From the UHGV virus genome UHGV-0179428: 64,000 nt of DNA; one strand, written 5' to 3'. Under the pieces are notes generated by a model. That model had not been told where the DNA came from. It worked only from the letters and a program-made list of their open reading frames with translations, and ran no database searches. How positions within the stretch are numbered: the stretch's first letter is position 1; each line of letters begins with the position of its first letter. The position numbers and the translations under genes were made by a program. Below, piece after piece: positions 5,585-23,668 of the stretch. The DNA comes from a virus.

Positions 5585-5597
5585 GGAGAATTTTTTG

Positions 5598-8500: not shown

Positions 8501-9779
8501 TCGCTATCTGCGCATTGACCTAACTACCAAAACCTGTAAGTTGGGGATTGGTTCCCGTTCAGATTCTGCTGTTACGGATATTCCGTTAGTGATGGAGGAG
8601 TCTGGGGAAACGGCAGTGGCCGCAACGTTTAAGGATGTGTTGTTCAACGGTGAGGAAACCAACGCGGCGACGCTCGACTTGATAGGTTGGGGTGCCAGCC
8701 GAGATAAAATTCCTGCAAACCATGCACCTCGTGGCATGATTCGCTATCGTTACAACGTAAACAGTCGGGTATTACGTTTAGCACTGACGTTCTCACAGTT
8801 CGGAACGACAACAGTTAAACATCGACAGCTGGAGATTCAATTCCCGTTCGATTTAGTGGATTATTTCACTGGCGACGGTGTGGGATTGTCGTTTAAAGAA
8901 CTGTCTGCGAAATGTCGTGTAACGATTAGTCACGCGCTGATTGATCCGGCTACGAGTAACGTCGACATTGATAAGTACCATTACTTACGTTCGTTGTTCG
9001 AATCGTATCTGGATTCGTCCGTTGGGTATTTGGCTGATACCAAAGACGTTGATTTTAGTCAGTCTGTGATTGACCCTGCGACTTATGAGGTTAGTCAAAA
9101 ATACCGCGTTACAGAAAGCATCGCGCTGCCAACCGGCCAGGGAAGTGTTGCTGTTTCCCATGACGGTCAGTTGCCTGCGCAGTTCTTTGACCGTAAGCTG
9201 TCTCGTGGTGCCTTGATGGCCAAGAAAGGTGAACTCAACGCTTCCTGGAATAATGAGTGGAGCACGACTAAAGCTGCTGCGAGTCGTTATCGCCATAAAC
9301 TCATTCTACGCTTTGCACAAGGTGCTGATAAACAGCAGTATCGCGTTGCAAAAGTGGCCGGGACGGTGAAGTCTAACTGGCCGGGTAAAGTGATTATCGG
9401 TGATGCCGGGAAGGACCCGTATGTATCGGCTATTGATAGCGTATCTTTTGCGCTTTCGACCGCCTCTGATACAGGTAAAGCGATTACTCTTACGCCAAAG
9501 GACTTACGTGTAGGTCAAGACATTTATATTGTCTTAGAACCGCCCGGCAATAATCCAGAAGGTTATGAACTTAACTTCACTTGTTCGTTAGATGTCACTG
9601 ACGAGAAAAGTGTCCGTCAAGATCAACTCAATGCACAGAGTTTCGAACTCCGTAGCGGCGAAAGTCAGTTCTTAATGGAGAAACGCAACCCGTACCACAT
9701 CACGAGTAAAGCGTGGAAGTGGATTCTGGCTGTACTGAAACGAGAACTTAACGGGAAGCAGTTAGGGGATCGTACTTAG
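5598..9779 (+). CDS. giant tail fibre protein (about 1393 aa)
   Basis: ATG at 5598 after AAGGAG (track start 5595 is TTG); shared N-terminal module (RPFFEDLVV...GVDYEL); fibre motif KADLGLGQADNTADLDKPLST and HHH box; terminator follows at 9817-9854. Confidence 0.85.
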   Translation: MKAYPYDPRGTKAENHFLEERIIGSENNNDRVVILDHRPFFEDLVVRQPGSTTPLSRGVDYELQYQLTELDDSVAANVYCGVHLINPSIKGIVTFEGQMLGGTFYDPFVDILDELVKYLNNPVSADWLLLDGRPSLYPATPAATSWADLLNKKYLASAVHDIELKTDDANQLIKDKLAEVKALVTALGKEIEAFNYPAHIAAKNPHETTSAQINAHPVNLKTPDTFMAYGLKLKALTDELKAFRLPQSVIDTYISHWISSEVRGVFNCTVSGNRAQFRSKNGESEIIFANDGFTLKSNGSVVLAVGHLEGTGAGRYINWRAGKNTLRIESTGDALGMNKLTLNGNPLLTTTALMEYQQDPDAGGSGGGDPDDSKVYIEGRNGISFTGKGSRTDPIVGTIDPTKATTAEKGVVKLKTGKGTETVGVAATPASLTPYSTDLSGYVAKTTMINGKPMNDGSRTITKADLGLGQADNTADLDKPLSTELTKAVSGLADVGHHHDWSELGIYKASQSVYGIGRYATNQNGLVENRAVVPNILKELSARLSVVAAAIANAKEGTVTDFAAVKGADWRFNSQGTAISVQDLKYFYLLDGTKGDSTVTGAIDLQTTPMFNWFSPNNQLELTWATGKVSNGTGINWTGIEEPPLMGFQSVPVGKTATQMGDQSVVTVLAKTRVKAYQPKLWVYAAGGGPVTVYINGIQAATGQSPLVAVYETSSDVENYTVAVKAECSDTTKSAAVQFEVYDGDYPVYFSGPETRVELLQEFVTTHVGVRHYLYVNMLTGSLYSRAEPIQSIAVDPERGYIGYVDIVPGQSYANKTVGFETTFDFGKSAEVSEHISTRKAHGLSAVDWALTDNPRLPLLNRAIAEPRACIFRKPLATATGDVFHLVSRGLYTYAHNQNVKSSLQYVVIPEGATPYCWFTPFNPKENNAPTFEGSFAFDVDDVGGTQALAAAPDLVLCTSTQGSSVKRRYLRIDLTTKTCKLGIGSRSDSAVTDIPLVMEESGETAVAATFKDVLFNGEETNAATLDLIGWGASRDKIPANHAPRGMIRYRYNVNSRVLRLALTFSQFGTTTVKHRQLEIQFPFDLVDYFTGDGVGLSFKELSAKCRVTISHALIDPATSNVDIDKYHYLRSLFESYLDSSVGYLADTKDVDFSQSVIDPATYEVSQKYRVTESIALPTGQGSVAVSHDGQLPAQFFDRKLSRGALMAKKGELNASWNNEWSTTKAAASRYRHKLILRFAQGADKQQYRVAKVAGTVKSNWPGKVIIGDAGKDPYVSAIDSVSFALSTASDTGKAITLTPKDLRVGQDIYIVLEPPGNNPEGYELNFTCSLDVTDEKSVRQDQLNAQSFELRSGESQFLMEKRNPYHITSKAWKWILAVLKRELNGKQLGDRT

Positions 9780-9873: not shown

Positions 9874-12800
9874 ATGCCGAGAGAAGACGCGGCGCAGTTT
9901 AACGGTACGCTAAGCACAGTGACGTACCCTAACCGATTTAACGTGGTCATTCCGCCTGAAGGACCTTTTTATCGTATCGGATTAAAACTCACAGTAGCCG
10001 ACGATACCGCGCCTAACGGACGTCGTACTCTGATTGAGGGGTTGGACTACTATTTAGGCTATTACTTTAAAGAACTCGCAGAAGCTGAACAAGATCAGAT
10101 TTATGGCGGGTTTATGTTGCTTACTGCAACAGAAATCGAATATGAGATTTTAGGGGTAGCACGGCAGTATCGTGTACCGCAATCTGAAATCGGGAAGTTC
10201 TTAGTTCGTACTGACCTGAAAGACCCACGTAACGTGGACTGGTCGGAGTTAATGGCGTACGCGCCGGTTATTCAACCAATCGACCCCCCTGCTAACTTAG
10301 AAGAAGCTATTCTGAGGGACGAGGTCGTTAAAGCGTTGAACGATATCCGCAAGAAAATCATTCAGCGTTCAACAGAGTTAGATGCGGCCTTCACCGAAGT
10401 CACTAACCTGATTTACGAGAACGGTAAAAAGATTTTCGATGAAGAACTATACCAACACCACCTTAATCCTAACGCTCACCAGTATACGACCAATGACGTT
10501 GGGGCCCTTCCGGTTTTAGGACGTGCTGTTGACGCTACAAAAGCGTTTGGGTTGACAATTGACCAACTGGCTACGCTGATGGGTTCGGCGGGCATTGAGC
10601 AATCAGACGTTGAACAGTTAATGGGCGAAGCCCTCGGTACCGTTTACGGTCGTTGGGGTACCACGAACGGTAATGAACTAACGTTTAAAACACCGGGTGG
10701 ACACATCATCAGCATCCGTGGTGATAAGTGGTTAATTACTTCACCACAACCGTTAGTGATTAAAGCAGACCAAGACAACAACGAATCCGGTTTGGCGGTT
10801 GAGTTTAGTGCGGGGCTGAATACGCTTTGGGTACACTCTGGGTCAGAACAGGATGTATTAGCACCGGTCTATAACTCTGTGTATTTGGTTACACCAGAAA
10901 TGGTGAACATGTACCTGACGTCTGTAACGTTACTTGAAGCGAACGCCTATTTCAAATCGTCTGACACCGTAAAACCGTACGGTACAGCGAAGCAGTCTAA
11001 CCCACTAACGTTGAATGCGAATATTCCCACAGCAACCGAGTCGGTTTATGGGGTGTTTTCGATTACGAATATCGCAACCTCTGTAGCGCTAGGCACTGCT
11101 ATTTCCCAAAAGGCTGTGACCGAGTTAAAAAACCGGTTGGACTTGTACGTTGATGATAGCTACACGGTTAACGGTAAAGGGTTTGTTAAGACAGGCGACA
11201 ACATGGTGTTAACCTTAACGAAGGCCGATTTCGGTATCGATAAGATGAATAACACCACACCCATCGCTAAACCGGTAACAAAAGCATTAGCGAACGTGCT
11301 GAAAAATAAAAGTTTGAAGGTACACACGCACACTACCGCTGATTTGGATAATGTCCCGATTGGTAGCGCAACAGTGGACGGTATCTTACAGCTGTGGGAT
11401 GCGATTGATACCACGAATGATAAAGCCGTTACATCACGCCAAGGGTGGTTGTTCGCAAAAGAGATTAAGAAGGTCTCTGATAAACTGAATACCCTCTTGC
11501 CCGCATGGACAACGGCCGGGAGCAAATATACCAACAATTCGATATTGCCGATCTTGTCGATGGGTAATTACGAAGGTTATGGTAAAAACATGGATGCGCT
11601 CCAGATGGTTATAGGGGTACAACAAGGTAAGCTTTACGCTTTAATTAGTTCTAAATCTGCCCTTCCGGGAACTGAGGGTATTTATTACGCTGTTGCTGGG
11701 TTAAAAAACGACAAAAGTCTCGGTGAAATTTACAAAACAACTTTCCGTTATAAGCCGAAAGGGTTAGAGACGAATTATCCGGGGGTGGAACTAAAAGAAA
11801 TTACCGTTACTGGTACCGAAGCATTTATAGCGAAGGGCAGCGACGATAATTATTATTTAGTTAAACTGAACGGTTCAATGGATTACACCAAACATACCGA
11901 TGTCAGGTTGGTAACTTTCTCAGAATTTGTTTCAGAAACAACATGGGAATTTGTGCCGAATATGTTCATGGATCGTGTGGTCATAGCCGATAACGGCGTC
12001 TATGTTTTGCGTACGATGCTAATGGCCGATCTGAAAAACAATAGTCTGGTGGACTACATTAAGGATACTCCGCAACCTATGTTCCGTGTTGGGTTATTGC
12101 GGCTTAATAAAACCGATCGGTTTGAACAGGTTGATTTAAGCTCTACACGAAAAATCGGTAAGTGTGCCGATTTGGTTGAACCTGGCGCGTTCGATGTAGA
12201 TAATCCGAATACGAAGCGTCTTGCCTACTTCACTGCGGAAGGCAAAGCGTTGTGGACAGTGAATTTACAATTAACTAGAGGGGTGTCAAGATGGATAACG
12301 CCCGTTGTTAAGGACGGTCACTTGTTAACCGTCGGCGTGTCTGGCGTTTGTCTTGGTTTTTCTTCAACGAAAGGTACCACATTCGGGCCATGGAATGGTG
12401 CTTATCGTCTCGACCTATTAACCGGGGAGGTTGGGTTAGAGACAACTAACATCTTCCCAATCAAAATCGATACTACAGGTTGCTACTTAAAAGACGGAAC
12501 AAAAATAGAGCTGAAATGGAAATGGGCTACTCGAAGTTCTGGCTATATGACCGACAATAGAATCTGTGTCGGTGATATGGTTTATTCTTGCTGCTGTTCG
12601 ACAGAAAAACAACTTGCACCATCTCTCCATTACCAGAAACTCCCAGAAGGAGTTAGTTATCTGGACTATGTTAAGTTGAGTGCGGGGTATGAGGGGCAAT
12701 CTACGTTTGAAAATCGGATAAACCCTGTGGTGGGTTCGGTGTGGAAACCGTCTATGACCTTCCCATTGTTCTTCCCAGGAACAAACAAAGTATGGCTTAA

Positions 12801-15060
12801 ACATCAAAAAACGGCTTATTTCATTGAAGCCGAATATGATAAAGATACGACTTATGGTTATCCTGGATACGGCGGGTTTGGACCAACATCCCGCCGTGTT
12901 GAAAAAAAAGCGAACGAATACGGCGTATTGACAAATATACCGCTGGTTGTTACGCCAGACATACCGAAAGGTCTACTAGATGGGGCTTACTTTATCGGTG
13001 CTGAAAGTAAACCATGTAAAGTTGTTTACGGTACCACTACGGTGGCTAGTGATCGGTTGTCTATCGATGCGGCAGAATGGGCGAAGTTGACTAATATTGT
13101 TCAGTCCAGCCAGTTCTCTGGGGCTTCTAACGGCAACGCCTATGAGCGGATTAGCGTAGCTAAGACCAAAAAGAACAACTACAGTTTGTCCTTTTGGGTG
13201 CTTGGTCAAACGATGTCTGGTGGTCCGCTTTGTATCGCGATAGTGAGTCTTATCTATAAAGACACTGACGGGGTAAATAAGTTTGCTTTTTACTTCTTTC
13301 AGGTAAAACCGACTATAACCAACGGGGTCATAAGGTTCGTTAGTTCGGAAGCGAGAATGATGACGTTCAGGGAAAAAGTGGCCAGTAACGCCATTAATCT
13401 CTCACCCACAGCTTTTAATGGTGAACTTAAACAACGCTCCGGTCAAGTTTTCCTTTATTCGCAAGACGGACAAAAGTTCAGATTCTCAATACATAACCTG
13501 GTTGGCGGGAATCTTGTAGGATCAGAGATTTCTTTTGCTTTTGGGATAAACTTGACTAAAAAAGGAGAATGGTTTACCGGCGAAATTCATCGGGCGTGGG
13601 GCTATACGTATACGCTGAATAATACATCTGAAGTCTATATACCCGATCTCTCGGGCATCGCGCTATTGACTTGTAACTCGGAAGATTTAAACGAGTTGTA
13701 TCTCGGTGGCGAACAGTATAGAATCTCTGATTTGTTTAACAAAAAATATACTGTTATCGATAAGATTATTATTGGCGGCGTACAAACACAGAGCGGTTGG
13801 AATTTCTATCTGACGGAGGAAACCGAGTTAAGTTTTGGAAATAAAAGATATACCGTTCCAAGATGGTCCGTTGATTTAAGCGATGAATTCCCGACTAATC
13901 ACGCTAACCAGACATTCTACGTTTATGCTGAAGTGGTCGGTTCTACTGCCCAATACCGCATCGGTTTAGAGCAGTTAGCTGATACCTCGTCGAGACTGTT
14001 TGTTGGGACAGTAACCACTGATTCGAACCGTATTACGGATATCAGTATCGATAAAGTAAAACGGTTAGGTCGTGTAAAAGAGCTGGAAAATCATGCCTCG
14101 GTTGTTGATCAGCACGATGTGGCGCAGGCGTTCGACAGGAAAACTGGTCCACTATTAACAGTGGTTAATAAACCCGTTAAAGCCATTACAGCATCTGCGA
14201 GCAAGGGTGCTGGGTATGTCGATGGTCAGAAATGGAATACGTTGTCCGGGATTGCAACGCGGCCCAGGTTGCCGGTACAGGAAACCTATTCAGGTTATAA
14301 AAGTATCAGCAGGGTGGCGTATGAGAACTGCGCTGACCAGTTCTGGCAGAAAGCGGTTGCTGCGAACGTTGCAGCGGCTACTGCTTCTGAGAACAAACAA
14401 GCAGCAACCGCGAACATGAAGTGGTTGGGTGCGTATACGAAACCGACTACCGGCGAGTATGCATATCTGGCATTGAGTCTGCGTGTTAAAGTACCTGGCG
14501 ATCCTGGTACTACTAATCGTCGACTGAAAATCAGGCTTGCGGCCCCGACAGGTATAACTCAAGTTCGTTACGGGCTAAATCAGTCTGGCGGTACGATGAC
14601 TGAACAGACAGTAACATTAACTGCTAACAGCTATCTGGAAAAAGAACACGCCGGATTTAAGCCAGCCGAAGAAGTCCGTGTACATGCTACGTTTGTCATT
14701 CCAAAAAATGAATACGATAGCTACCGTACGAAGTTCGGTGCTGTTCAGCTGATTGACGTTGAGTCGAACACTGTCATTAAACAGACAGATATCGACACAC
14801 CGTTTATCGTGTATACCGACACGGAGTTAGCAGCACAATCTGGTTTGGTGTATAAAGCGGTTAAGGGTCAGTTCCATCAACTCCCGTCTCAACCTGTCGT
14901 CATTGTAACTGATGGACAGACAGGGACTACGCCACCGGTGAAAACCTCGTTTGCTGACGGGACATTAACGGTCTACGTGGCAACCACGTACGACGCGGTG
15001 AATCCAGCACAAACGCGCGATATCGATAAGCTCCAGTTCAATCTTATGTTTACATCTTAA
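9874..15060 (+). CDS. giant tail fibre protein (1728 aa)
   Basis: AGGAG RBS; shared N-terminal module (GPFYRIGL...GLDYYL); fibre motif KADFGIDKMNNTTPIAKPV and HTHTTADLDNVP. Confidence 0.85.
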   Translation: MPREDAAQFNGTLSTVTYPNRFNVVIPPEGPFYRIGLKLTVADDTAPNGRRTLIEGLDYYLGYYFKELAEAEQDQIYGGFMLLTATEIEYEILGVARQYRVPQSEIGKFLVRTDLKDPRNVDWSELMAYAPVIQPIDPPANLEEAILRDEVVKALNDIRKKIIQRSTELDAAFTEVTNLIYENGKKIFDEELYQHHLNPNAHQYTTNDVGALPVLGRAVDATKAFGLTIDQLATLMGSAGIEQSDVEQLMGEALGTVYGRWGTTNGNELTFKTPGGHIISIRGDKWLITSPQPLVIKADQDNNESGLAVEFSAGLNTLWVHSGSEQDVLAPVYNSVYLVTPEMVNMYLTSVTLLEANAYFKSSDTVKPYGTAKQSNPLTLNANIPTATESVYGVFSITNIATSVALGTAISQKAVTELKNRLDLYVDDSYTVNGKGFVKTGDNMVLTLTKADFGIDKMNNTTPIAKPVTKALANVLKNKSLKVHTHTTADLDNVPIGSATVDGILQLWDAIDTTNDKAVTSRQGWLFAKEIKKVSDKLNTLLPAWTTAGSKYTNNSILPILSMGNYEGYGKNMDALQMVIGVQQGKLYALISSKSALPGTEGIYYAVAGLKNDKSLGEIYKTTFRYKPKGLETNYPGVELKEITVTGTEAFIAKGSDDNYYLVKLNGSMDYTKHTDVRLVTFSEFVSETTWEFVPNMFMDRVVIADNGVYVLRTMLMADLKNNSLVDYIKDTPQPMFRVGLLRLNKTDRFEQVDLSSTRKIGKCADLVEPGAFDVDNPNTKRLAYFTAEGKALWTVNLQLTRGVSRWITPVVKDGHLLTVGVSGVCLGFSSTKGTTFGPWNGAYRLDLLTGEVGLETTNIFPIKIDTTGCYLKDGTKIELKWKWATRSSGYMTDNRICVGDMVYSCCCSTEKQLAPSLHYQKLPEGVSYLDYVKLSAGYEGQSTFENRINPVVGSVWKPSMTFPLFFPGTNKVWLKHQKTAYFIEAEYDKDTTYGYPGYGGFGPTSRRVEKKANEYGVLTNIPLVVTPDIPKGLLDGAYFIGAESKPCKVVYGTTTVASDRLSIDAAEWAKLTNIVQSSQFSGASNGNAYERISVAKTKKNNYSLSFWVLGQTMSGGPLCIAIVSLIYKDTDGVNKFAFYFFQVKPTITNGVIRFVSSEARMMTFREKVASNAINLSPTAFNGELKQRSGQVFLYSQDGQKFRFSIHNLVGGNLVGSEISFAFGINLTKKGEWFTGEIHRAWGYTYTLNNTSEVYIPDLSGIALLTCNSEDLNELYLGGEQYRISDLFNKKYTVIDKIIIGGVQTQSGWNFYLTEETELSFGNKRYTVPRWSVDLSDEFPTNHANQTFYVYAEVVGSTAQYRIGLEQLADTSSRLFVGTVTTDSNRITDISIDKVKRLGRVKELENHASVVDQHDVAQAFDRKTGPLLTVVNKPVKAITASASKGAGYVDGQKWNTLSGIATRPRLPVQETYSGYKSISRVAYENCADQFWQKAVAANVAAATASENKQAATANMKWLGAYTKPTTGEYAYLALSLRVKVPGDPGTTNRRLKIRLAAPTGITQVRYGLNQSGGTMTEQTVTLTANSYLEKEHAGFKPAEEVRVHATFVIPKNEYDSYRTKFGAVQLIDVESNTVIKQTDIDTPFIVYTDTELAAQSGLVYKAVKGQFHQLPSQPVVIVTDGQTGTTPPVKTSFADGTLTVYVATTYDAVNPAQTRDIDKLQFNLMFTS

Positions 15061-15100
15061 CGCCACGAGACAAGGACGTCTCGGATTAAGGAGAGTGGCC

Positions 15101-16300
15101 ATGGCCTCCATTGTATACCAATACCCTTTAGATTTAACGGGAAGCCTAACCTCTAACGCCGTGGAGCGTCAGGTTACGTTAGGTACAGGTAAAGTTAACC
15201 GTGCGTTTGCTTTTCCTGATGGACCGTTTTATGCCGATACGTTCCGCTTGCGGGTTGCCAACCGACCCGATGCGACGTATGAGCGCGGAACGGACTATGA
15301 GTTGATTTTTGCACATCCGGCTTACGAGAAATTGACGAAGAACCGGGAAGTGGTAATGGCGGTTGTTGTAACGAACACCGCCATTCCGACCGATATCACG
15401 GTATCGGCGCAAGTAGTCGGGGGTCCGCAGTCTGCAAACGTGACTGCGATAGAACAGGCGATTGCTGAGTTGAATCTCGATAATCGAACTGTCGGCTTTA
15501 AAGACTTGCGAAATGTTCCTGATACATTTCCGTCAGCACCAACGTATAAAGACGTCGGTGATATTTACGGTTTCGAATATATCATTACAGTGCTCGCTGG
15601 CATTAAAGATGCGATAACGGCGGGCGATGCTGTACAGCTTGAGAACATCAAAGCGATTCTCGAAAGCCTGAAAAACGATTTCCTGGACGCGCTGAACGCA
15701 CACATTAACGCCACGGGTAACGTCCACCATCTGGATATTCACCAGGTTAACGGGTTAACAGAAACGGAGATCCGTGCACTTATCCGTGATGTACAGTCTG
15801 CCATCGATGCAACCATTACCGATATTAATGCGTTGAAGAAAGCAGATGAAGCGTTAGGAAAACGTATTGATGCTGTTGTCAAATCTTTGGAAGCGTGGAA
15901 CGACCAACTTAACATCGTTGCACAAAACTACCAGAAAATGGCATTGGCATTGGCGAACCTAAATTCGTTAGTGTTACAGTTACAGAAAAATATCAACGAT
16001 CTGAACACCAAACTCAACCAAGCGATTCAGCGCATTGCTGCGTTAGAACAGCGGGGTAATGAGTCCGATCAGAAAATTGATAATCTGCAACAAAACCTGG
16101 ATGCGCTTAAACAACAGGTTGCGAATAACACGAACGCAATCAGTCAGGCGAATCAGAACCTACAAAACCATATTGCGGCAGATAACCCACACACGGGCTA
16201 TCTCCACAAGAAATACGGTGGTGTGGTTCAGGCTCCAGTGCACGTTAACGCTAACTTGACGTCCCGTGATGACGTTCAGGCAGAAGCGGGTACGAAATAA
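15101..16300 (+). CDS. coiled-coil fibre/needle-like structural protein (about 399 aa)
   Basis: ATG at 15101 after AAGGAGAG (track start 15095 is GTG); shared N-terminal module (GPFYADTFRL...GTDYELIF); long heptad-like Q/N/L-rich coiled-coil region. Confidence 0.8.
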   Translation: MASIVYQYPLDLTGSLTSNAVERQVTLGTGKVNRAFAFPDGPFYADTFRLRVANRPDATYERGTDYELIFAHPAYEKLTKNREVVMAVVVTNTAIPTDITVSAQVVGGPQSANVTAIEQAIAELNLDNRTVGFKDLRNVPDTFPSAPTYKDVGDIYGFEYIITVLAGIKDAITAGDAVQLENIKAILESLKNDFLDALNAHINATGNVHHLDIHQVNGLTETEIRALIRDVQSAIDATITDINALKKADEALGKRIDAVVKSLEAWNDQLNIVAQNYQKMALALANLNSLVLQLQKNINDLNTKLNQAIQRIAALEQRGNESDQKIDNLQQNLDALKQQVANNTNAISQANQNLQNHIAADNPHTGYLHKKYGGVVQAPVHVNANLTSRDDVQAEAGTK

Positions 16301-16355: not shown

Positions 16356-16367
16356 TAAGGATACGTG

Positions 16368-16763
16368 ATGGCGATCAGTGTTAAAAATGTACGTGACCGA
16401 ATCACCAACGTAGAGAACCAAATGGCAACTGGCCCACGTGTTGATCCGCAAGTTGCGTCGAAAGCACATAATGCCGCCGACACTTTTTCGGGTTGGACGC
16501 CAAGTCGGTTAGACTGCGGGGGGAGTTGCAGCTGGACGTGCTCAAACGGTTGTACGCATGGCTGTACGAGTTGTTCGGGCACCTGTACGTCAGTGTGTGT
16601 AGGTAGCTGCTCCTCTGCGTGCGGTAACCAGTGTACTGGATGTAGTTCAACGTGTTCCGGTGGCTGCTCAGGTTGCAGTGGGACCTGTGGGGGTGCTTGC
16701 TCGGGCCGTTGTTCTACGGGTTGTTCTGGTGCTTGCTCTGGTGGCTGTTCTGGCCCAACCTAA
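16368..16763 (+). CDS. Cys-rich repeat peptide A (131 aa), candidate radical-SAM substrate/precursor
   Basis: ATG after AAGGA RBS; N-terminus MAISVKNVRDRITNVEN, junction DCGGSCSWTCS, then about 80 aa of C-x3-C repeats rich in G/S/T; paralogous to the next two ORFs. Confidence 0.8.
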   Translation: MAISVKNVRDRITNVENQMATGPRVDPQVASKAHNAADTFSGWTPSRLDCGGSCSWTCSNGCTHGCTSCSGTCTSVCVGSCSSACGNQCTGCSSTCSGGCSGCSGTCGGACSGRCSTGCSGACSGGCSGPT

Positions 16764-16773
16764 GAGGTGAAAA

Positions 16774-17172
16774 ATGGCAATTGGATTACCTGCGCTACAA
16801 GCGCGGCTAAATAACATTGACAACACTGCATTGAAGAATACGGGTGCAGTACAAAACTATATTCGTGGGAAAGCGACGAACAACGCAGACTTATTCGGTG
16901 GGCAAGCTCGCAACCACTATGACTGTGGTGGGAGCTGTAGCTGGACCTGTTCGAGCTGTTCTGGTGGTTGTACAGGGAACGCATCAGGCGGCTGTGGTTC
17001 TTCCTGTTCTGCAAACTGTGTATCAGGTTGTAGTGCAGGCTGTAGTGGATGTTCGAATACCTGTTCTGGTGGCTGTTCAGGAAGCTGTACGGGGAGTTGT
17101 TCTAACTCGTGTGTAGGAAACTGTTCTGCAGGCTGCTCAGGTAGTTGTTCTGGTGGGTGTTCTGGGAGGTAA
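16774..17172 (+). CDS. Cys-rich repeat peptide B (132 aa), candidate radical-SAM substrate/precursor
   Basis: ATG after AGAGGTGA; N-terminus MAIGLPALQARLNNIDN, junction DCGGSCSWTCS, about 80 aa of C-x3-C repeats. Confidence 0.8.
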   Translation: MAIGLPALQARLNNIDNTALKNTGAVQNYIRGKATNNADLFGGQARNHYDCGGSCSWTCSSCSGGCTGNASGGCGSSCSANCVSGCSAGCSGCSNTCSGGCSGSCTGSCSNSCVGNCSAGCSGSCSGGCSGR

Positions 17173-17174
17173 TT

Positions 17175-17381
17175 GTGATTAGCCTTAAGAACCTTCGTGA
17201 TCGGTTAGTAACAGCGGAAGGGTATATTACGACCGCTAACGCAAACAACTATATTGCAAACCAGGGCACTGTGTCTTCAACCAATAACCTTGCCGGTTTA
17301 CCTTTAAGCCATTATAACTGTAACGGTGGATGTAGCTGGTCGTGCAGTGGTAGCTGTAGTAAAGGTGCGGGGGGAAGGTAA
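17175..17381 (+). CDS. Cys-rich peptide C (68 aa), short paralog of A/B
   Basis: GTG at 17175 five nt after GGGAGG, three nt after the stop of peptide B; N-terminus MISLKNLRDRLVTAEG, junction NCNGGCSWSCSGSCS, then only 8 more residues. The track start at 17145 is an upstream in-frame artefact. Confidence 0.65.
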   Translation: MISLKNLRDRLVTAEGYITTANANNYIANQGTVSSTNNLAGLPLSHYNCNGGCSWSCSGSCSKGAGGR

Positions 17382-17530: not shown

Positions 17531-18418
17531 ATGAAGAATGATTTACATTTAGCGTACAAAACAATTTTCAATCATCCACTTCACATTTCTTCCCCTGATT
17601 CCGTACGTGCACACTTAGCAGATGAAGTTCGTCTGCTGACTCAGTTGCCGGGCGAATGGCCTAAAGTGCGCGGACGTTTCTTTACCGATCGTAAAAACTA
17701 TCGTGTAGAAAATACGTTTAAGATTCGTGATCTGACGGCAGAAAGTGTAGTGGTCTTTACCGGTGACTCCGAGTTGCGTGGTAAACTGGTTGCGGGTAAA
17801 TATTTCTTTAGTGACGGGATTTTGAATAACTCCGTAGATATGGAATTGTTCTTTACCCCATTTGAAGAAATGGGCGCAAAACCGGTTGCCCGTCGTTGGT
17901 GGTCACCGGATTACTTAGGCTCGTTCCCGTATTTCTTTACCCTGGTAACACCAGAAACGAAGAACTATTTCGATACGGAATCGTATATCGAAATTGAAGG
18001 GTACGAAGCGTTAGGGATTAATTGCTTAGCGGATTTAATGGCGTATAGCTATAAGTTCGTGTGGGATCGTGAACGTTCCGTGTGGGTTGCCCTGACGGAT
18101 GAACACGAAATCACAAAACGCATCCGTAAGCCTTGGATGCAGCATTTGATTCAAACGCGTATTGGCGAGCATCCGTCAACAGAAGCGGATCTGGCAAAAC
18201 TCGTTAGTTTCTTAATGACGAAAGTCACGTTAACTGACGAAGAGAAAGCAGCAGTGTCGGCGGTGTTGGACCGTAACGTAACGTTAGCGGATTTAGAACG
18301 TTTAAATGTCCGTTATAAAGACCTTAACCGTGTTTTGGAAGCGTATAACTCTCCATTTTTGTTAACCCCTGGTGCTAACGTAGACGACGATCCTTTGTTC
18401 GCCATTGATTATATTTAA
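17531..18418 (+). CDS. hypothetical protein (296 aa) inside the Cys-peptide/radical SAM locus
   Basis: ATG at 17531 seven nt after GGAG (track start 17519 is TTG); no recognisable motif; sits between the precursors and the radical SAM genes. Confidence 0.75.
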   Translation: MKNDLHLAYKTIFNHPLHISSPDSVRAHLADEVRLLTQLPGEWPKVRGRFFTDRKNYRVENTFKIRDLTAESVVVFTGDSELRGKLVAGKYFFSDGILNNSVDMELFFTPFEEMGAKPVARRWWSPDYLGSFPYFFTLVTPETKNYFDTESYIEIEGYEALGINCLADLMAYSYKFVWDRERSVWVALTDEHEITKRIRKPWMQHLIQTRIGEHPSTEADLAKLVSFLMTKVTLTDEEKAAVSAVLDRNVTLADLERLNVRYKDLNRVLEAYNSPFLLTPGANVDDDPLFAIDYI

Positions 18419-18439: not shown

Positions 18440-19363
18440 ATGACAACCAATGCAGAACCAAGGTTATCGAATCGTTTATACGATAAACCCACCGTATTGT
18501 CCGTAGTCGCTACGTCCAAGTGTAACCTGGATTGTAGCTTCTGCGGTGGAGCCTATTACATGAATCGTGAAGATTCTCCGCGAGAGTTTCAACGTGAGCG
18601 AATTTTGGAAGCGCTGGAAGCTAATCCAACCATTACCGAAATTCAGTGGACGGGTGGTGAGCCATTACTGGCAACCCGTAAAATTGAGGCGTTTGTTGAC
18701 GAATTAAAAGTGATTCGTCCAGAACTCAAACACCAGTTGTATACCAATGGCTTAAAGATGCGTAAATCGCATCTCCCGTTGCTAAAACAGTTTGACAATG
18801 TCTACGTTAGCATCGATGGGTTTAAGTCGTCTGAGCGCCCGTTTATGCGCTTTATTGACGAAGGCTGTTACGAAGCACTGGAAACGATCTACGAGCTGGA
18901 TAATGTCCAGACTTGGGGTGTCCTGACACGGGACCGTTTAGGGGACAAACGCTGGCACGAAGATATTATTCAGCTGCACAGCGCGATTTACCATTACGGT
19001 TTCCGTGCAATGACGTTACTCTTAGATGCGAAAATGCCAAAACCTTTATCGCCTGACCACGTCATGAACTTTATTTACGGCTACTATCAGGTTCAGGACA
19101 ACATTGAACGGCTGAATGTAGTAAATAGTCGTGAATGCGGCTTTACGGTAAGTAAAGTGTTTGAAGAAGGGTGTAACGTTTGCAGCGAAAGTCTTTGGAT
19201 TAATGCAGACGGTGGTGAGCACCAACTCCAGAATGCACCTAACGTTCTGGAATCGGGATGTAACCAACTGGCCTTCTCTATCGGTGTAGAGGCGTACGAA
19301 TATATTCGTCGTGTGGTGATGGCAGGGCGTAATAGAGGGGCGGCAAATGAGTCAAGTAAATGA
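18440..19363 (+). CDS. radical SAM enzyme (307 aa)
   Basis: CNLDCSFCGG (CxxxCxxC) near the N-terminus, GGEPLL glycine-rich motif, VSIDGFKSSERP segment, additional C-terminal cysteines (CGF...CNVC...GC). Confidence 0.8.
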   Translation: MTTNAEPRLSNRLYDKPTVLSVVATSKCNLDCSFCGGAYYMNREDSPREFQRERILEALEANPTITEIQWTGGEPLLATRKIEAFVDELKVIRPELKHQLYTNGLKMRKSHLPLLKQFDNVYVSIDGFKSSERPFMRFIDEGCYEALETIYELDNVQTWGVLTRDRLGDKRWHEDIIQLHSAIYHYGFRAMTLLLDAKMPKPLSPDHVMNFIYGYYQVQDNIERLNVVNSRECGFTVSKVFEEGCNVCSESLWINADGGEHQLQNAPNVLESGCNQLAFSIGVEAYEYIRRVVMAGRNRGAANESSK

Positions 19364-20669
19364 ATTCCCTAAGCAGTTAACGTATCAGATCGTAACCAAC
19401 CTTTCGTGTAACCTGGACTGCGAATATTGTTACGAACGTAAGTACCCGCGTAACAACAAAGCGGCTGACATTGTTGATTTCTTACACGCCTGTTTTGAAC
19501 GTGATAAAAACGAACCGAATGTTGAAGTTATTATCGACATTATCGGTGGTGAACCGTTCATGCAGCCTAAACTGCTGTTGGCTGCGTTTGAAACCGCTGA
19601 GCAGTTGTGTAAAGAACACAACCGACCGTTTATGTTTAGTATCTCCACGAACGGAACGCTGTTAGATCGTCCGTTGAACCGTGAGATTGTAGAACGTTGG
19701 AAAGATAAACTTTCGGTTGGGGTTTCGATTGATGGCTTACCTGAATCCCATGACCGTTATCGTATCTTCACAACAACACGCCAGGGTTCTTACGAAGCCG
19801 CAGTACGTGGCTATAACTACTTAAAAGAGGTTGGCATTGCAGAGCTCGGCGTAAAAGCAACCTTTACGTTAGAAACGCTGCCGTTCTATGCTGCGGGGAT
19901 GAAGTCATTAATTGACATTACTGGCGGTGGGACAATTTCTGGAAACGTAACTTTCGAAGACGTTATGCCACGTAGCATGGCGACGTCAATCGCTTTACAG
20001 ATGATGGATGTGATAGATTACTGGGTTGAGAAAGGATTACACACCAACCCACGTAATATCCTATCGCATATCATTCCAGAAGGGTTGGATTTCGACACGA
20101 TTTGGGAACCGAACTGGCGTGACCAGTTACTGTATAATGACACCGTACGGTTGAACCCGGAACGCTTACGTCCGTTCTGTGGGACGTTAACGCACATGAC
20201 GTGCTTAGGGTTTGACCGTAAGATCTTTGGCTGTAACCGCTTTATGTCAACGGTAACGTCGCGTTCTGCGGTGTTTGAGTTGGTAGGTCGGGAATTCGTC
20301 AGTCTGGACAACGGTAAATTGTTAGAAGAGATTCAAACGCAATATACCAACTACCCAGAGACCTGTTTAGGTTGTCCGATGAAACACGCTTGTGGTAGCT
20401 GCGCAGCGGCTTCTTACGAGAACGGGGAAGGAACGTTAGAAGACCGTAAAGCGTATCACGCTGAACGACGTCAGTGTGGCTGGACGACAGCGAAACTGAT
20501 GGTGGCGGAATACTGGAAACAGAAGATGGGTACGACGTCAGCAAAAGCGTTCCACGACACGAGTATGTGTTATTGCCCACGCTGTGTTCGTGAACGTGCC
20601 CAAAAGGAAAAATTATTAAGAGAAGCCAAAGATGAAACCAATTCTGATCAACAATATTACGAAGCGTAG
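19347..20669 (+). CDS. radical SAM enzyme with SPASM-like C-terminal Cys cluster (440 aa), anSME/peptide-maturase-like
   Basis: CNLDCEYCY (CxxxCxxC), GGEPF, SIDGLPESHDRYR, C-terminal CLGCPMKHACGSC plus further cysteines; overlaps the previous gene by 17 nt. Confidence 0.8.
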   Translation: MSQVNEFPKQLTYQIVTNLSCNLDCEYCYERKYPRNNKAADIVDFLHACFERDKNEPNVEVIIDIIGGEPFMQPKLLLAAFETAEQLCKEHNRPFMFSISTNGTLLDRPLNREIVERWKDKLSVGVSIDGLPESHDRYRIFTTTRQGSYEAAVRGYNYLKEVGIAELGVKATFTLETLPFYAAGMKSLIDITGGGTISGNVTFEDVMPRSMATSIALQMMDVIDYWVEKGLHTNPRNILSHIIPEGLDFDTIWEPNWRDQLLYNDTVRLNPERLRPFCGTLTHMTCLGFDRKIFGCNRFMSTVTSRSAVFELVGREFVSLDNGKLLEEIQTQYTNYPETCLGCPMKHACGSCAAASYENGEGTLEDRKAYHAERRQCGWTTAKLMVAEYWKQKMGTTSAKAFHDTSMCYCPRCVRERAQKEKLLREAKDETNSDQQYYEA

Positions 20670-21204
20670 AATTCGACTTCTGGATAAGTTTCTGGAAAAC
20701 AGTAAGCTATTTGGTTGTTATGTGGTGATTAACGGTGAAGATTTTACCGATGACGTAAAACGCTTGCTGATTCGTCACGGTGTGACTGTAATCATCCCAA
20801 TGTACTGCACCGAACTTACTGACCTGTCGGTCGCGGAAATTGAAAAACGTAACCCAGGGTTTGAAGAACGGGTATTGGATTTCCCACGTCACAAAATTGC
20901 GTTTCTACGCCGCTCTTTAAGCGAACCCAGCGCAGAATCTATCACTGTGTTGGCATTGTCCTTCCCCGGCATTACTATCTTCGCAACACGTAACCCGAAC
21001 TCACCGATTGATGGGTTTTACGATGAGCGGGAGAAATTTAATACCGTGATTTTTCCTGAGCTAACGCCAGAAGAATGCCAGGGTATCCGTATCGATTGGG
21101 AATCGGACTTCGACACAAGATTCCGTCATATCGATTTTGAACTGTTAATCGAATTAGGGTTGATTAAAGGAGACGATGAATGTCTGCTACTGGTGAAGGC
21201 TTAA
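20632..21204 (+). CDS. hypothetical protein (190 aa)
   Basis: ORF overlapping the 3' end of the SPASM gene by 38 nt; no motif recognised. Confidence 0.6.
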   Translation: MKPILINNITKRRIRLLDKFLENSKLFGCYVVINGEDFTDDVKRLLIRHGVTVIIPMYCTELTDLSVAEIEKRNPGFEERVLDFPRHKIAFLRRSLSEPSAESITVLALSFPGITIFATRNPNSPIDGFYDEREKFNTVIFPELTPEECQGIRIDWESDFDTRFRHIDFELLIELGLIKGDDECLLLVKA

Positions 21205-21851
21205 CGAAAGAAGAAATCCGTCGCCGTTATTTTGCGCATGATTTACCGATTGACCGTCATGGTAACTACATGGAGAAAATCGGTAGCGAAGATCACGGCC
21301 GTACAGGGTTTTGTGCGTTACTGCACTATAAGCTGATTGATGGGATGTCTGATCGCGAAGCATTGGAACAAATGCGTAACTACGACATGTCTGAAATCGA
21401 AGCACGGTTTACGCTACAGAAAGCGAAAGACTTTGTTAACGACACGTTGGGAATCGACCTGGAAGAAATTCGTACAGGTTTACGTTCCACGGTGCGGTAC
21501 ATCTTTACCGATGTTCAGAAAATTCTAAGCGCTCTGGAATTCCGTTATCAGGATGCACGCTATGCTGAGATTCAGGTAGGTGATTTCACTTTCCAGGCAG
21601 ATGAGAAGTCACAGGTAGCATTGAGTCGTTATATCCAGTCAGAAACTGCGCCAGCGTATTGGTTAACGGCTAACAACACCCGTATCGAACCGTTTACGTT
21701 AGAACAGTGCAAGACGTTGCTGGCAGCAATCGTTGAGCGTGATCAAAGACTACATCACGCAATGTCTGAGCAGAAAAGAGAAGTCAGGGCTTGGGCTGAA
21801 GCACGTGATTACGATTCGATAAAAGCGTTTGCGTTAGAGCAAGGGCTGTAA
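21180..21851 (+). CDS. hypothetical protein (223 aa)
   Basis: ORF with AAAGGAG RBS; last gene of the plus-strand block. Confidence 0.7.
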   Translation: MSATGEGLTKEEIRRRYFAHDLPIDRHGNYMEKIGSEDHGRTGFCALLHYKLIDGMSDREALEQMRNYDMSEIEARFTLQKAKDFVNDTLGIDLEEIRTGLRSTVRYIFTDVQKILSALEFRYQDARYAEIQVGDFTFQADEKSQVALSRYIQSETAPAYWLTANNTRIEPFTLEQCKTLLAAIVERDQRLHHAMSEQKREVRAWAEARDYDSIKAFALEQGL

Positions 21852-21874
21852 TCGACAGCGAAAAAAAAATAGTA

Positions 21875-21915
21875 TACCTACCTCCCGTAATAGGAGGTAG
21901 GTATTTTTATTTTTC
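21875..21915. terminator. bidirectional rho-independent terminator at the strand-switch point
   Basis: Perfect hairpin TACCTACCTCC-CGTAAT-AGGAGGTAGGTA flanked by an A-run upstream and TTTTTATTTTT downstream, between convergent gene blocks. Confidence 0.75.
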
Positions 21916-21930
21916 TGTTGTTGATTTTCA

Positions 21931-22461
21931 TTAGGCTGGAGTAAAACCGTCAAGTTCACTATTTAACGTTGACATGTCCGTAACAACACGTAGCGTCAGT
22001 GTGCACAAAGACCCAGGTTGAAATTTGAGATTACCACCTTTAACGTTACAGTTATACAGGGCTGTAGATTCTGTTACTGCGCCTTTAGCGATTATAACCT
22101 CACCTACCGCAAACTCATCGTCAACCCAACCGCGTTTCTGAATCAGCTCGTTGAGAATAGCGACAATCTGATCGTTATTCTTTTCAAGTTCTTCAGCAGT
22201 GGCTACATTGTAAGTTTGTGGGCCTAAAACATTAACCCCGGGAATTCGGGTATAGTGGAATACTTTAGAGCCTGTGAAATTTGCAGATGTGGGCCGTGCG
22301 GTGAGCGTTACTTGCGCGTTGCGGGAACTACCAGGTTCTGTAGGCTGGTAGTTGGCAACGCCTTCACCAAAGTCAACATCCTCTAAAGTCAGTGGTGCTT
22401 GAAGCTGATTGTTTTTAAGGTTTATTAAATCAATCAGCTGTTGTTCAGTGCTTTTAGCCAT
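21931..22461 (-). CDS. ELDGFT-family paralog (176 aa), probable virion-associated protein
   Basis: N-terminus QQLIDLINLKNNQL...LTLEDVDFG, C-terminal ELDGFTPA; paralogous to the two ORFs upstream. Confidence 0.75.
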   Translation of the reverse strand: MAKSTEQQLIDLINLKNNQLQAPLTLEDVDFGEGVANYQPTEPGSSRNAQVTLTARPTSANFTGSKVFHYTRIPGVNVLGPQTYNVATAEELEKNNDQIVAILNELIQKRGWVDDEFAVGEVIIAKGAVTESTALYNCNVKGGNLKFQPGSLCTLTLRVVTDMSTLNSELDGFTPA

Positions 22462-22529: not shown

Positions 22530-23060
22530 TTAGGACGTAAAGCCGTCCAGCTCACCGTTGGTGGTAGCCAGGTCAATACGTTTGTCTTCCACTTTCGGGG
22601 TAATAACAAACGTTGCCATTACACCTGGTTTATAACGGAGGTTCTTTTCAGTAACAGTACACGTTACCGTACGCAGAGTAACGTTTTCATGTTCGTCTTT
22701 CTGGTCTTCGGTAGAATAAGAAACGTCCGCTGGATGAATAGCATCGTCCGGTTTAACTTTATTGATGTAATATTGTAACCATGCGCGCAATTCGTTTTGA
22801 TCTTCCCAACGAGACAGATCGTCAGTTAGTTCAATACGACCTACAACACCCGGTTCCAGACGATCGTAATGCAGTTCGATTGCGCCTTTGAAATTCTCAG
22901 AACCTGGTAGTGCAGTCATGGTAACTTTGGTATTCTTACCTTCGCCTTCCAGCGCAGTAGGGAGACCAAAGGACACTTCTTTATCAGTAATCTGATGTGG
23001 TAGCTCAGTGTTAGCAGCATTATAAAGCGCGACCAACATCATCTGGTTAGTAGCGGCCAT
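22530..23060 (-). CDS. ELDGFT-family paralog (176 aa)
   Basis: C-terminal GELDGFTS; same architecture as neighbours. Confidence 0.75.
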   Translation of the reverse strand: MAATNQMMLVALYNAANTELPHQITDKEVSFGLPTALEGEGKNTKVTMTALPGSENFKGAIELHYDRLEPGVVGRIELTDDLSRWEDQNELRAWLQYYINKVKPDDAIHPADVSYSTEDQKDEHENVTLRTVTCTVTEKNLRYKPGVMATFVITPKVEDKRIDLATTNGELDGFTS

Positions 23061-23125: not shown

Positions 23126-23668
23126 TTACTCTTTAGGACTCGGTGCAGTGAAGCCCTCGAGCTCACCATCCAGGCTGTCCAGAGCTACCTTCTGAGGAGC
23201 CGGTACACGGTACTGGTAATTTGCAATCATACCAGCCTGGAACTTGATATGACCTTCTTTTACCTGTACAGTATAGTTGAAACCGCCTTCACCTGCATCA
23301 GTTTTCTGGATTTCCAGTTCTTCTGCGATAAAGGCATCATCGACATAACCTTTAGTAATCATGTCGGCATTCAGTGCAGCTACGATAACATCGTTAGCGA
23401 CATCAGTAGTTGCATCAGTAACGGTTTTCACACCGATTAAAGATTCGGCGACCAGACGGATATAATGGAACTCTTTGCTTCCGGTAAAGTTAGCGCTTTC
23501 GTCTTTTGCAGTCAGGACAACTTTAGTATTACGGTTGTCATCTTCGCCAGAAGGACTATAAAGTTCTACAGTACCGAAATTAACATCGCCAACAGTCAGT
23601 TGGTGTTCCAGGGAACCGTTTTTGGCATTAACGGCGTCAATAAGTTGCTGTTGAAAAGCTTTAGCCAT
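23126..23668 (-). CDS. ELDGFT-family paralog (180 aa)
   Basis: N-terminus QQLIDAVNAKNGSL, C-terminal GELEGFTAP. Confidence 0.75.
   Translation of the reverse strand: MAKAFQQQLIDAVNAKNGSLEHQLTVGDVNFGTVELYSPSGEDDNRNTKVVLTAKDESANFTGSKEFHYIRLVAESLIGVKTVTDATTDVANDVIVAALNADMITKGYVDDAFIAEELEIQKTDAGEGGFNYTVQVKEGHIKFQAGMIANYQYRVPAPQKVALDSLDGELEGFTAPSPKE

Follow-up and report, generated by a model that had tools for sequence, protein, structure and literature searches.

Which function could be served by a phage protein whose gene lies between small cysteine (Cys)-rich genes and two genes for radical S-adenosylmethionine (SAM) enzymes? This question was raised by virus genome UHGV-0179428, of which one stretch of 64,000 nucleotides (nt), referred to hereafter as the window, was analysed. 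The gene concerned (17531-18418, plus strand) codes for an ortholog of SPN3US_0165, the gp165 of Salmonella phage SPN3US, and its product is called gp165-like here. The answer to which our comparisons point, and which we hold with moderate confidence, is that this non-virion protein is an accessory subunit, probably without catalytic activity of its own, of a maturation machine whose other two members would be radical SAM enzymes, a small one and a large one of the SPASM type, and that would operate on Cys-repeat fibre tails.

The open frame ending at 18418 on the plus strand offers two candidate starts, TTG 17519 and ATG 17531. Since 43 of 43 full-length homologs (identity 41-99%) begin with MKN(D/E) and a GGAG ribosome-binding site is situated upstream (-12..-9, about 7 nt before the ATG), ATG 17531 was retained as the true start. 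The TTG codon was ruled out by the homolog N-termini and by the position of the ribosome-binding site. With its TAA stop, the gene codes for 295 amino acids (aa). A preliminary description, made from the sequence before the present comparisons, gave the right coordinates and a length of 296 aa, which includes the stop codon. It also correctly placed the gene between Cys-rich precursors (three open reading frames (ORFs) on its 5' side) and the radical SAM genes (3' side). The full-length homologs, the conserved synteny and a match to phrog_8030, a PHROG family of unknown function (E 3.1e-141, residues 1-293 versus profile positions 1-293/295), identified 17531-18418 as a genuine gene and not a chance ORF. 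The gene observation was thus confirmed and the accompanying interpretation was, as detailed below, partly supported. The absence of any recognisable motif was likewise borne out: no Pfam (E<=0.1), NCBIfam or PDB sequence match was obtained with the window protein, either as a single sequence or as a profile, and 20 remote members gave no Pfam match at E<=5, the PqqD profile PF05402 included.

Some database records of this gene deserve a separate remark. In Salmonella phages SPFM1, 8, 10, 14 and 20 (GenBank LR5359xx; proteins P0044-P0048), the gp165 ortholog appeared with blocks of ~20 aa in reverse order, and the deposited DNA therefore apparently has its 60-nt lines reversed, which is a database artefact. 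Window positions 18026-18067 were the sole megablast match to several SPFM records; the reversed line order explains both the 42-nt matches H25-H30 and the '12 stretches' match.

Association of the gp165-like family with two radical SAM enzymes

Loci are designated below by L-numbers and homologous proteins by P-numbers, L001 being SPN3US. The large enzyme was used as an independent entry point: its search yielded 265 relatives in viral contigs, from which 80 loci were kept, plus 55 loci in genomes, and co-occurrence was counted by clusters of large enzymes at 70% identity. The small radical SAM enzyme and a gp165-like protein were both present in 12 clusters and both absent in 13. The small enzyme occurred without a gp165-like protein in four clusters, and a gp165-like protein without the small enzyme in none; both enzymes were found in 12/12 gp165-containing lineages. 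This census indicated that the presence of a gp165-like protein goes with the two enzymes together, and more precisely with the small one, and follows neither the Cys-rich substrate nor the SPASM enzyme by itself. Apart from L030, which is discussed below, the clusters with the small enzyme only consisted of distant enzymes, L104 and L130 having no Cys-rich neighbour and L112 and L130 being truncated contigs.

Single-enzyme viral loci displayed a bona fide TIGR04115 maturase (520 bits in L092), without small radical SAM enzyme and without gp165-like protein. They carried long Cys-rich fibre-like proteins (e.g. 816-834 aa with 40-46 Cys per run, or 433 aa with 71 Cys), and examples among IMG/VR contigs L036-L092 are L092 2664-5114, L048 4659-5960 and L053 2613-5117. 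An accessory protein of 90-130 aa and of TIGR04116 type was found in several single-enzyme lineages checked. The gp165-like protein was rejected as a homolog of TIGR04116 (hhalign probability 0.3% and 0.15% with two gp165-like alignments); the TIGR04116 profile did not match the window protein, and it matched one of the 20 remote members at E 0.4. Judging from these contigs, radical SAM genes beside Cys-rich fibre-like proteins look widespread in phages.

The gp165-like family itself appeared rare and specific, since its profile matched only 42 proteins at E<=1e-3 among 1.84 billion representatives. Many of these were 230-320 aa long and were matched mainly at profile positions ~160-275. The features by which the superfamily was delimited, i.e. 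the C-terminal lobe (~160-275), the order of secondary-structure elements and the proximity of both radical SAM genes and a Cys-rich gene, were all encountered in the window protein. Relatives down to about 20% identity, with the same predicted fold, occurred in unrelated myo-, sipho- and podophages as well as in bacterial contigs. No loci were retrieved when P0059, P0061, P0071 and P0074 were each used to scan viral contigs. Altogether, the gp165-like proteins constitute a rare and uncharacterised family of phage tail-fibre modules and of bacterial contigs, the latter being probably prophages.

Cassette synteny was conserved among the Seoulvirus-type jumbo myophages. The lambda-like siphophage contigs (L006-L008) displayed GpJ, followed by a fibre-like protein of 247-255 aa ending in ...YYRCSGCTWTCQSSCTGSC..., the gp165-like protein, the small enzyme and the large enzyme. 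In the T7-like podophage contigs (L009-L012), a T7-type tail fibre preceded an ORF of 65-76 aa that overlaps the fibre stop and is composed nearly entirely of CxxC/CxxxC repeats, and the gp165-like, small and large enzyme genes came next. The same components were found in other viral or metagenomic lineages (L031, L035, L093-L096) and in bacterial contigs L097-L101 (Desulfoluna, Thalassospiraceae and Synergistaceae). A remote member of 213-215 aa, located between both enzymes, characterised the L041 group. More generally, the small enzyme of two-enzyme loci was ~260-350 aa long, the large one was of the SPASM type, and a protein or peptide with a CxxC/CxxxC tail, often a tail fibre, was encoded alongside.

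Gene order was permuted between lineages: fibre, gp165-like, large, small in L031; fibre, small, gp165-like, large in L035; large, gp165-like, small and two Cys-rich genes in L041; Cys-rich, gp165-like, large, small in L095. Despite these permutations, the trio of gp165-like, small and large enzyme genes stayed adjacent (L031, L035, L041, L095 and L100), and the stop or start of the gp165-like gene frequently overlapped a radical SAM gene, translational coupling to the enzyme genes being the usual situation. One Synergistaceae contig (L100) encoded two divergent gp165-like paralogs in tandem (4394-5284 and 5259-6014), an arrangement that hints at a dimeric mode of action.

Enzymes, presumed substrates and predicted fold

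The small radical SAM enzyme of the window (18440-19363, plus strand; 307 aa; Pfam PF04055, E 6e-14) begins 21 nt past the gp165-like stop and is followed by the large radical SAM/SPASM enzyme (19347-20669, plus strand; 440 aa; PF04055, E 3.4e-15), the genes downstream of gp165-like overlapping each other. The CxxxCxxC motif begins at C28 in the former (C28xxxC32xxC35) and at C21 in the latter, so that neither enzyme has room for an N-terminal recognition domain; on this point the preliminary description was borne out. A C-terminal Cys pair of the small enzyme (C248 and C274) was conserved in the alignment and possibly provides ligands of an auxiliary cluster. In the large enzyme, the SPASM-type Cys set was invariant. 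Comparison with NCBIfam gave matches to NF047865 PapB (E 1.2e-33), TIGR04115 (E 6.5e-33) and SCIFF (E 3e-16), all of them below curated cut-offs, and the large enzyme is accordingly classified, at the sequence level, as divergently related to the thioether maturases of the CXXX-repeat and PapB types. Because of this resemblance to PapB, SCIFF and CXXX-repeat maturases, thioether cross-links would be the likeliest chemistry. An ORF of 672 aa in L101 (5110-7128) comprised both enzymes and displayed the CxxxCxxC motif twice, at residue 23 and at residue 308. This Rosetta-stone-type fusion suggests that small and large enzymes act together, with the reservation that an assembly error of the metagenome-assembled genome is possible. 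In L014 (2575-3486) and L028 (2576-3487), two phages closely related to that of the window (large enzymes 93% identical), an additional paralog of the small radical SAM enzyme (303 aa) was observed between the first and second Cys-rich ORFs.

Three Cys-rich proteins are encoded directly upstream of gp165-like on the plus strand. Protein 1 (16365-16763; about 131 aa; phrog_6085, E 1.6e-40; weak TIGR04114 match) and its paralog, protein 2 (16774-17172; 132 aa; phrog_6085, E 4.7e-38), are the presumed substrates. The former consists of an N-terminal region of ~50 aa, a CGGSCSWTC junction and a CxxC/CxxxC repeat run with 21 Cys. The latter matched the Cxxx-repeat model TIGR04114 at E 5e-4 (20.4 bits for a cut-off of 20). 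Short protein 3 (17175-17381; 68 aa; initiated at a GTG that a GGGAGG site precedes; phrog_6085, E 2.5e-24) displays the same N-terminal region, followed by only the CNGGCSWSCSGSC junction, and has orthologs in SPN3US, L003 and L005. Protein 1 was conserved across all Seoulvirus-type loci, whose ORFs kept the N-terminal region of ~50 aa. In many loci the Cys-rich part formed the C-terminus of a fibre protein of 250-570 aa, and in podophage ORFs the N-terminal region was reduced to about 14 aa. Myo- and siphophage-type loci shared a junction ahead of the repeats with an invariant Trp, NA(D/E)xLxGxxxxx(Y/F)(Y/F)xC-x(2,3)-C(S/T)WxC. It was located at 16500-16530, 16930-16960 and 17310-17340 in the window, and was also recorded in L008 (7248-7991), L035 (3297-4502), L097, L100 and L101. 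The Trp junction (CSWxC) was considered as a mark of two-enzyme loci and was ruled out as such, the Trp being absent from the substrates of podophages, L031, the L041 group and L094-96.

The corresponding Cys-rich ORFs of SPN3US (7950-8342, 8353-8757 and 8773-8979 in L001) are poorly represented in databases: SPN3US_0166 was given the wrong frame, and its two companions carry no annotation. Likewise, in pEa_SNUABM_29 and with metagenome gene callers, minus-strand ORFs were called over the Cys-rich region. Being misannotated or unannotated, and hence absent from search databases, these proteins could not be detected in SPN3US proteomics. Such missing or wrong annotation in SPN3US and its relatives may conceal a class of tail components from proteomics studies. 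The particle proteome of SPN3US lists gp160 and gp167-171 and none of gp161-166 (PMC5105663 Table S4); gp165 is not a virion protein in this phage.

A confident AlphaFold2 model of the gp165-like protein, built from a 41-sequence alignment, reached a mean predicted local distance difference test (pLDDT) score of 88.9 and a predicted template modelling (pTM) score of 0.85. It displayed an N-terminal alpha/beta lobe of ~nine strands and a C-terminal helical lobe (helices 191-211, 220-229, 236-246 and 252-272). Foldseek retrieved nothing below E 0.1 from PDB, and the only significant match in BFVD was the ortholog of Erwinia phage Asesino; sub-threshold, non-significant matches repeatedly involved curved-sheet domains of the NTF2-like/SnoaL-like type. 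Neither the PqqD-like winged helix nor the peptidase fold named as candidates in the preliminary description was among the PDB and BFVD matches, nor did these searches provide the confident assignment to an unrelated function that would have told against its proposal. The winged helix-turn-helix that defines PqqD and other recognition elements of peptides that are made on ribosomes and modified after translation (RiPPs), with three strands and three helices, was not recognised in the model. Remote member P0066 (about 20-25% identity; pLDDT 88.5) was predicted to share the order of secondary-structure elements along the whole chain. This suggests that the entire two-lobed fold is conserved and that the sequence of its N-terminal lobe diverges fast. 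The family is thus predicted to possess a single two-lobed fold of its own. Across 34 lineages, conservation concerned D168, G212, A219, D220, L228, L234, E238 and R261, together with an aromatic residue at 176, and no His, Cys or Ser was conserved.

Proposed accessory subunit and competing explanations

The accessory role favoured here can be put in mechanistic terms. The three-protein machine would have as its targets the CxxC/CxxxC-repeat tails that fibre proteins, or proteins associated with fibres, possess; in the window these proteins are represented by the ORFs at 16365-17381. The gp165-like protein would serve as an adaptor or scaffold, holding the Cys-rich substrate and/or bridging both enzymes, and would stand in for the recognition domain that both enzymes lack. 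Its better-conserved C-terminal helical lobe (about 160-275) may contact the conserved enzymes, its fast-diverging N-terminal alpha/beta lobe may contact the lineage-specific part of the substrate, and the SPASM enzyme would install thioether cross-links. A more elaborate version, which we advance only tentatively, is that of a substrate adaptor with a new fold inside a heterotrimeric two-radical-SAM 'fibre maturase', where it would replace the usual recognition element, unrelated phages thereby cross-linking their own fibres in RiPP style. The preliminary description had postulated a separate partner for leader binding, leader cleavage or scaffolding. Co-occurrence of the trio argues for a dedicated partner of the enzymes, and the part of the claim that concerned leader cleavage found no peptidase fold or motif to sustain it.

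Several observations weigh against the adaptor role. The argument for it is drawn throughout from genomic association. That description had also regarded loss of the gene from otherwise conserved loci as adverse: the gene was present in the 12 clusters and missing in L030, a true exception that displayed a small radical SAM enzyme without detectable gp165-like protein and possessed extra radical SAM genes. This locus (3065-5983) codes for a 568-aa fibre with a 28-Cys tail, followed by an apparently split small enzyme, a protein of 224 aa, a radical SAM protein of 472 aa and, lastly, the large enzyme; the 224-aa ORF was considered as a divergent gp165-like member and rejected, no relationship being detectable. 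Membership of the L041 group was established by a profile-profile match (hhalign probability 95%, E 3e-8) and not by a direct one. Co-variation was assessed by a distance-matrix (mirror-tree) comparison over 21 Seoulvirus-type loci, a weak and linkage-confounded test, in which gp165 correlated with gp161 (r 0.96), the small enzyme (0.95), the large enzyme (0.94) and the Cys-rich N-terminal regions (0.88). The best correlate was gp161, a DUF4376 protein (partial r 0.71). For the Cys-rich N-terminal regions the partial r was about 0, again with linkage as a confounding factor, so that the co-evolution with precursors for which the preliminary description proposed to look was not specifically observed. 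A classical leader-binding role is therefore not favoured. Finally, the wide conservation of D168, D220, E238 and R261 in a fold without match would be compatible with an enzymatic role.

The last point leads to the possibility that the gp165-like protein is a third enzyme of new fold (a hydrolase, cyclase or transferase), acting on the product of the small enzyme or providing that enzyme with something. The strict coupling to the small enzyme would fit a two-step reaction, and the four charged residues are conserved across the superfamily. The recurring NTF2-like/SnoaL-like matches involve pocket domains and are weak and sub-threshold. We regard this explanation as unlikely, and grant about the same low probability to a tail-fibre assembly chaperone of the Tfa type, which would assist folding, trimerisation or attachment of the Cys-rich fibre independently of radical SAM chemistry. 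A chaperone would account for the absence of gp165 from SPN3US virions and for the position of the gene, in most loci directly 3' of the fibre or Cys-rich gene as is classical for chaperones; an insignificant BFVD match (E 0.42, template modelling score 0.16), annotated as 'putative tail fiber assembly protein', points the same way. Yet similar Cys-rich fibres of single-enzyme loci do without a gp165-like protein, and in L035, L041 and L100 the gene lies away from the fibre gene and still beside radical SAM genes, which its start or stop often overlaps. No chaperone family of Pfam or PHROG (Caudo_TAP, Phage_tail_APC and similar) was matched either.

Two further roles appear very improbable. 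A leader peptidase, which would cut off the N-terminal region once the Cys-rich proteins have been modified, would suit the position in the cluster, the reasoning of the preliminary description and the conserved ~50-aa N-terminal region of Seoulvirus Cys-rich ORFs. However, no Pfam or NCBIfam peptidase profile and no peptidase fold matched the gp165-like protein, and no nucleophile was conserved; moreover, the substrates are often the C-terminal parts of 250-570-aa fibres, and only about 14 aa precede the repeats in podophages. A structural tail adaptor, joining the Cys-rich fibres to gp167 or gp168 (described below), would agree with the location of the gene in a tail-fibre module next to the genes of these two proteins. 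Against it, SPN3US gp165, a Lys/Arg-rich protein of 33 kDa that should be easily detected, was not found in the virion proteome where gp160 and gp167-171 are abundant (PMC5105663), and gp165-like proteins occurred in phages with entirely different tails. An accessory subunit of the two radical SAM enzymes is the role that we retain.

Genomic setting and relation to known systems

By nucleotide identity and gene order, the window is assigned to a Seoulvirus-type (SPN3US-like) jumbo phage. The region around the gp165-like gene displayed ~72% nucleotide identity to SPN3US and other Seoulvirus jumbo phages, its gene order is that of SPN3US genes 168 to 161, and its large radical SAM protein is 100% identical to that of a 225-kb IMG/VR contig (L013). 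The plus-strand block includes a gp168-like tail/baseplate-periphery protein (9874-15060; 1728 aa), recognised by synteny with SPN3US_0168, and a gp167-like coiled-coil protein (15095-16300; 401 aa; phrog_2163, E 8e-103) located directly 5' of the Cys-rich ORFs. In SPN3US, gp168 belongs to the tail and resembles phiKZ gp131 of the baseplate periphery, and gp167 is found in virions and is missing, like tail proteins gp168 and gp171, from am27 sup- particles (PMC5105663). The relationship of gp168 to phiKZ gp131 identified the locus as a tail-fibre module.

Downstream of the large enzyme, the plus-strand operon continues with an overlapping gp162-like gene (20632-21204; 190 aa; phrog_7988), seen only in Seoulvirus-type loci, and ends with a gp161-like DUF4376 gene (21180-21851; 223 aa; PF14301, E 5e-11). 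A bidirectional terminator-like hairpin (21874-21904) closes the block. DUF4376 proteins recurred near the cassette in unrelated phages (L094 5125-5760 and L095 6015-6650). Convergent to the operon, three tandem paralogs of ~176-180 aa were found on the minus strand (21931-22461, 22530-23060 and 23126-23668), where SPN3US has a single gene, gp160. The latter codes for an abundant particle protein that is kept in am27 sup- particles lacking tail proteins (PMC5105663). A sigma-70 promoter scan of the locus gave chance-level matches, sigma-70 being irrelevant for such phages.

Small peptides, either secreted or used in signalling, are the setting in which radical SAM/SPASM maturases are known. 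The occurrence of such enzymes in the tail-fibre modules of many unrelated phages suggests a covalent modification of virion fibres by enzymes that the phages themselves encode. If the fibre-maturase proposal is true, RiPP chemistry would build a structural component of a virus instead of a secreted peptide. The gp165-like family would also mark a distinct two-enzyme version of the system and offer a handle for its reconstitution; when the right accessory protein is lacking, attempts to express such enzymes in a heterologous host often fail. No literature was found that deals with gp165 or with these Cys-rich fibre proteins, with a CXXX system of phages or with the modification of tail fibres by radical SAM enzymes, most subscription journals being outside the search, so that earlier work may exist.

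Among known systems, the fibre chaperones (lambda or Mu Tfa, T4 gp38 and gp57A) are also non-virion proteins encoded just after the fibre gene. They displayed no sequence or fold kinship with gp165-like proteins, whose presence tracks the radical SAM pair and not the fibre. The nearest functional analogy would be offered by PqqD-type partners, i.e. a separate non-catalytic protein beside radical SAM/SPASM enzymes without fused recognition domain. PqqD with PqqE and MftB with MftC are cases of stand-alone RiPP recognition elements from which a radical SAM enzyme receives its peptide.

The nearest architecture is that of HxsABCD, which combines a repeat peptide, the paired radical SAM enzymes HxsB and HxsC and a small protein, HxsD: in both systems a substrate with repeats is accompanied by two radical SAM enzymes, one of the SPASM type and the other smaller, and by an accessory protein. 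The large enzyme matched HxsB at E 3.9e-21 and the small one HxsC at E 4.5e-10, both far below cut-offs. The substrate repeat of the window is, however, Cys-based and not His-Xaa-Ser, its context is a phage tail module, and none of the NCBIfam models, HxsD presumably among them, matched gp165-like proteins.

The closest described system is the CXXX-repeat system (TIGR04114/TIGR04115/TIGR04116), which likewise associates a CxxxC-repeat substrate with a SPASM maturase and an accessory protein. Yet the large enzyme of the window scored 114.7 bits for a TIGR04115 cut-off of 350, its cassette adds a second, small radical SAM enzyme, and gp165-like is about three times larger than TIGR04116 and unrelated to it (hhalign probability below 1%). 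On these comparisons, the window locus is a putative two-enzyme variant of the CXXX-repeat system with a different, larger accessory protein.

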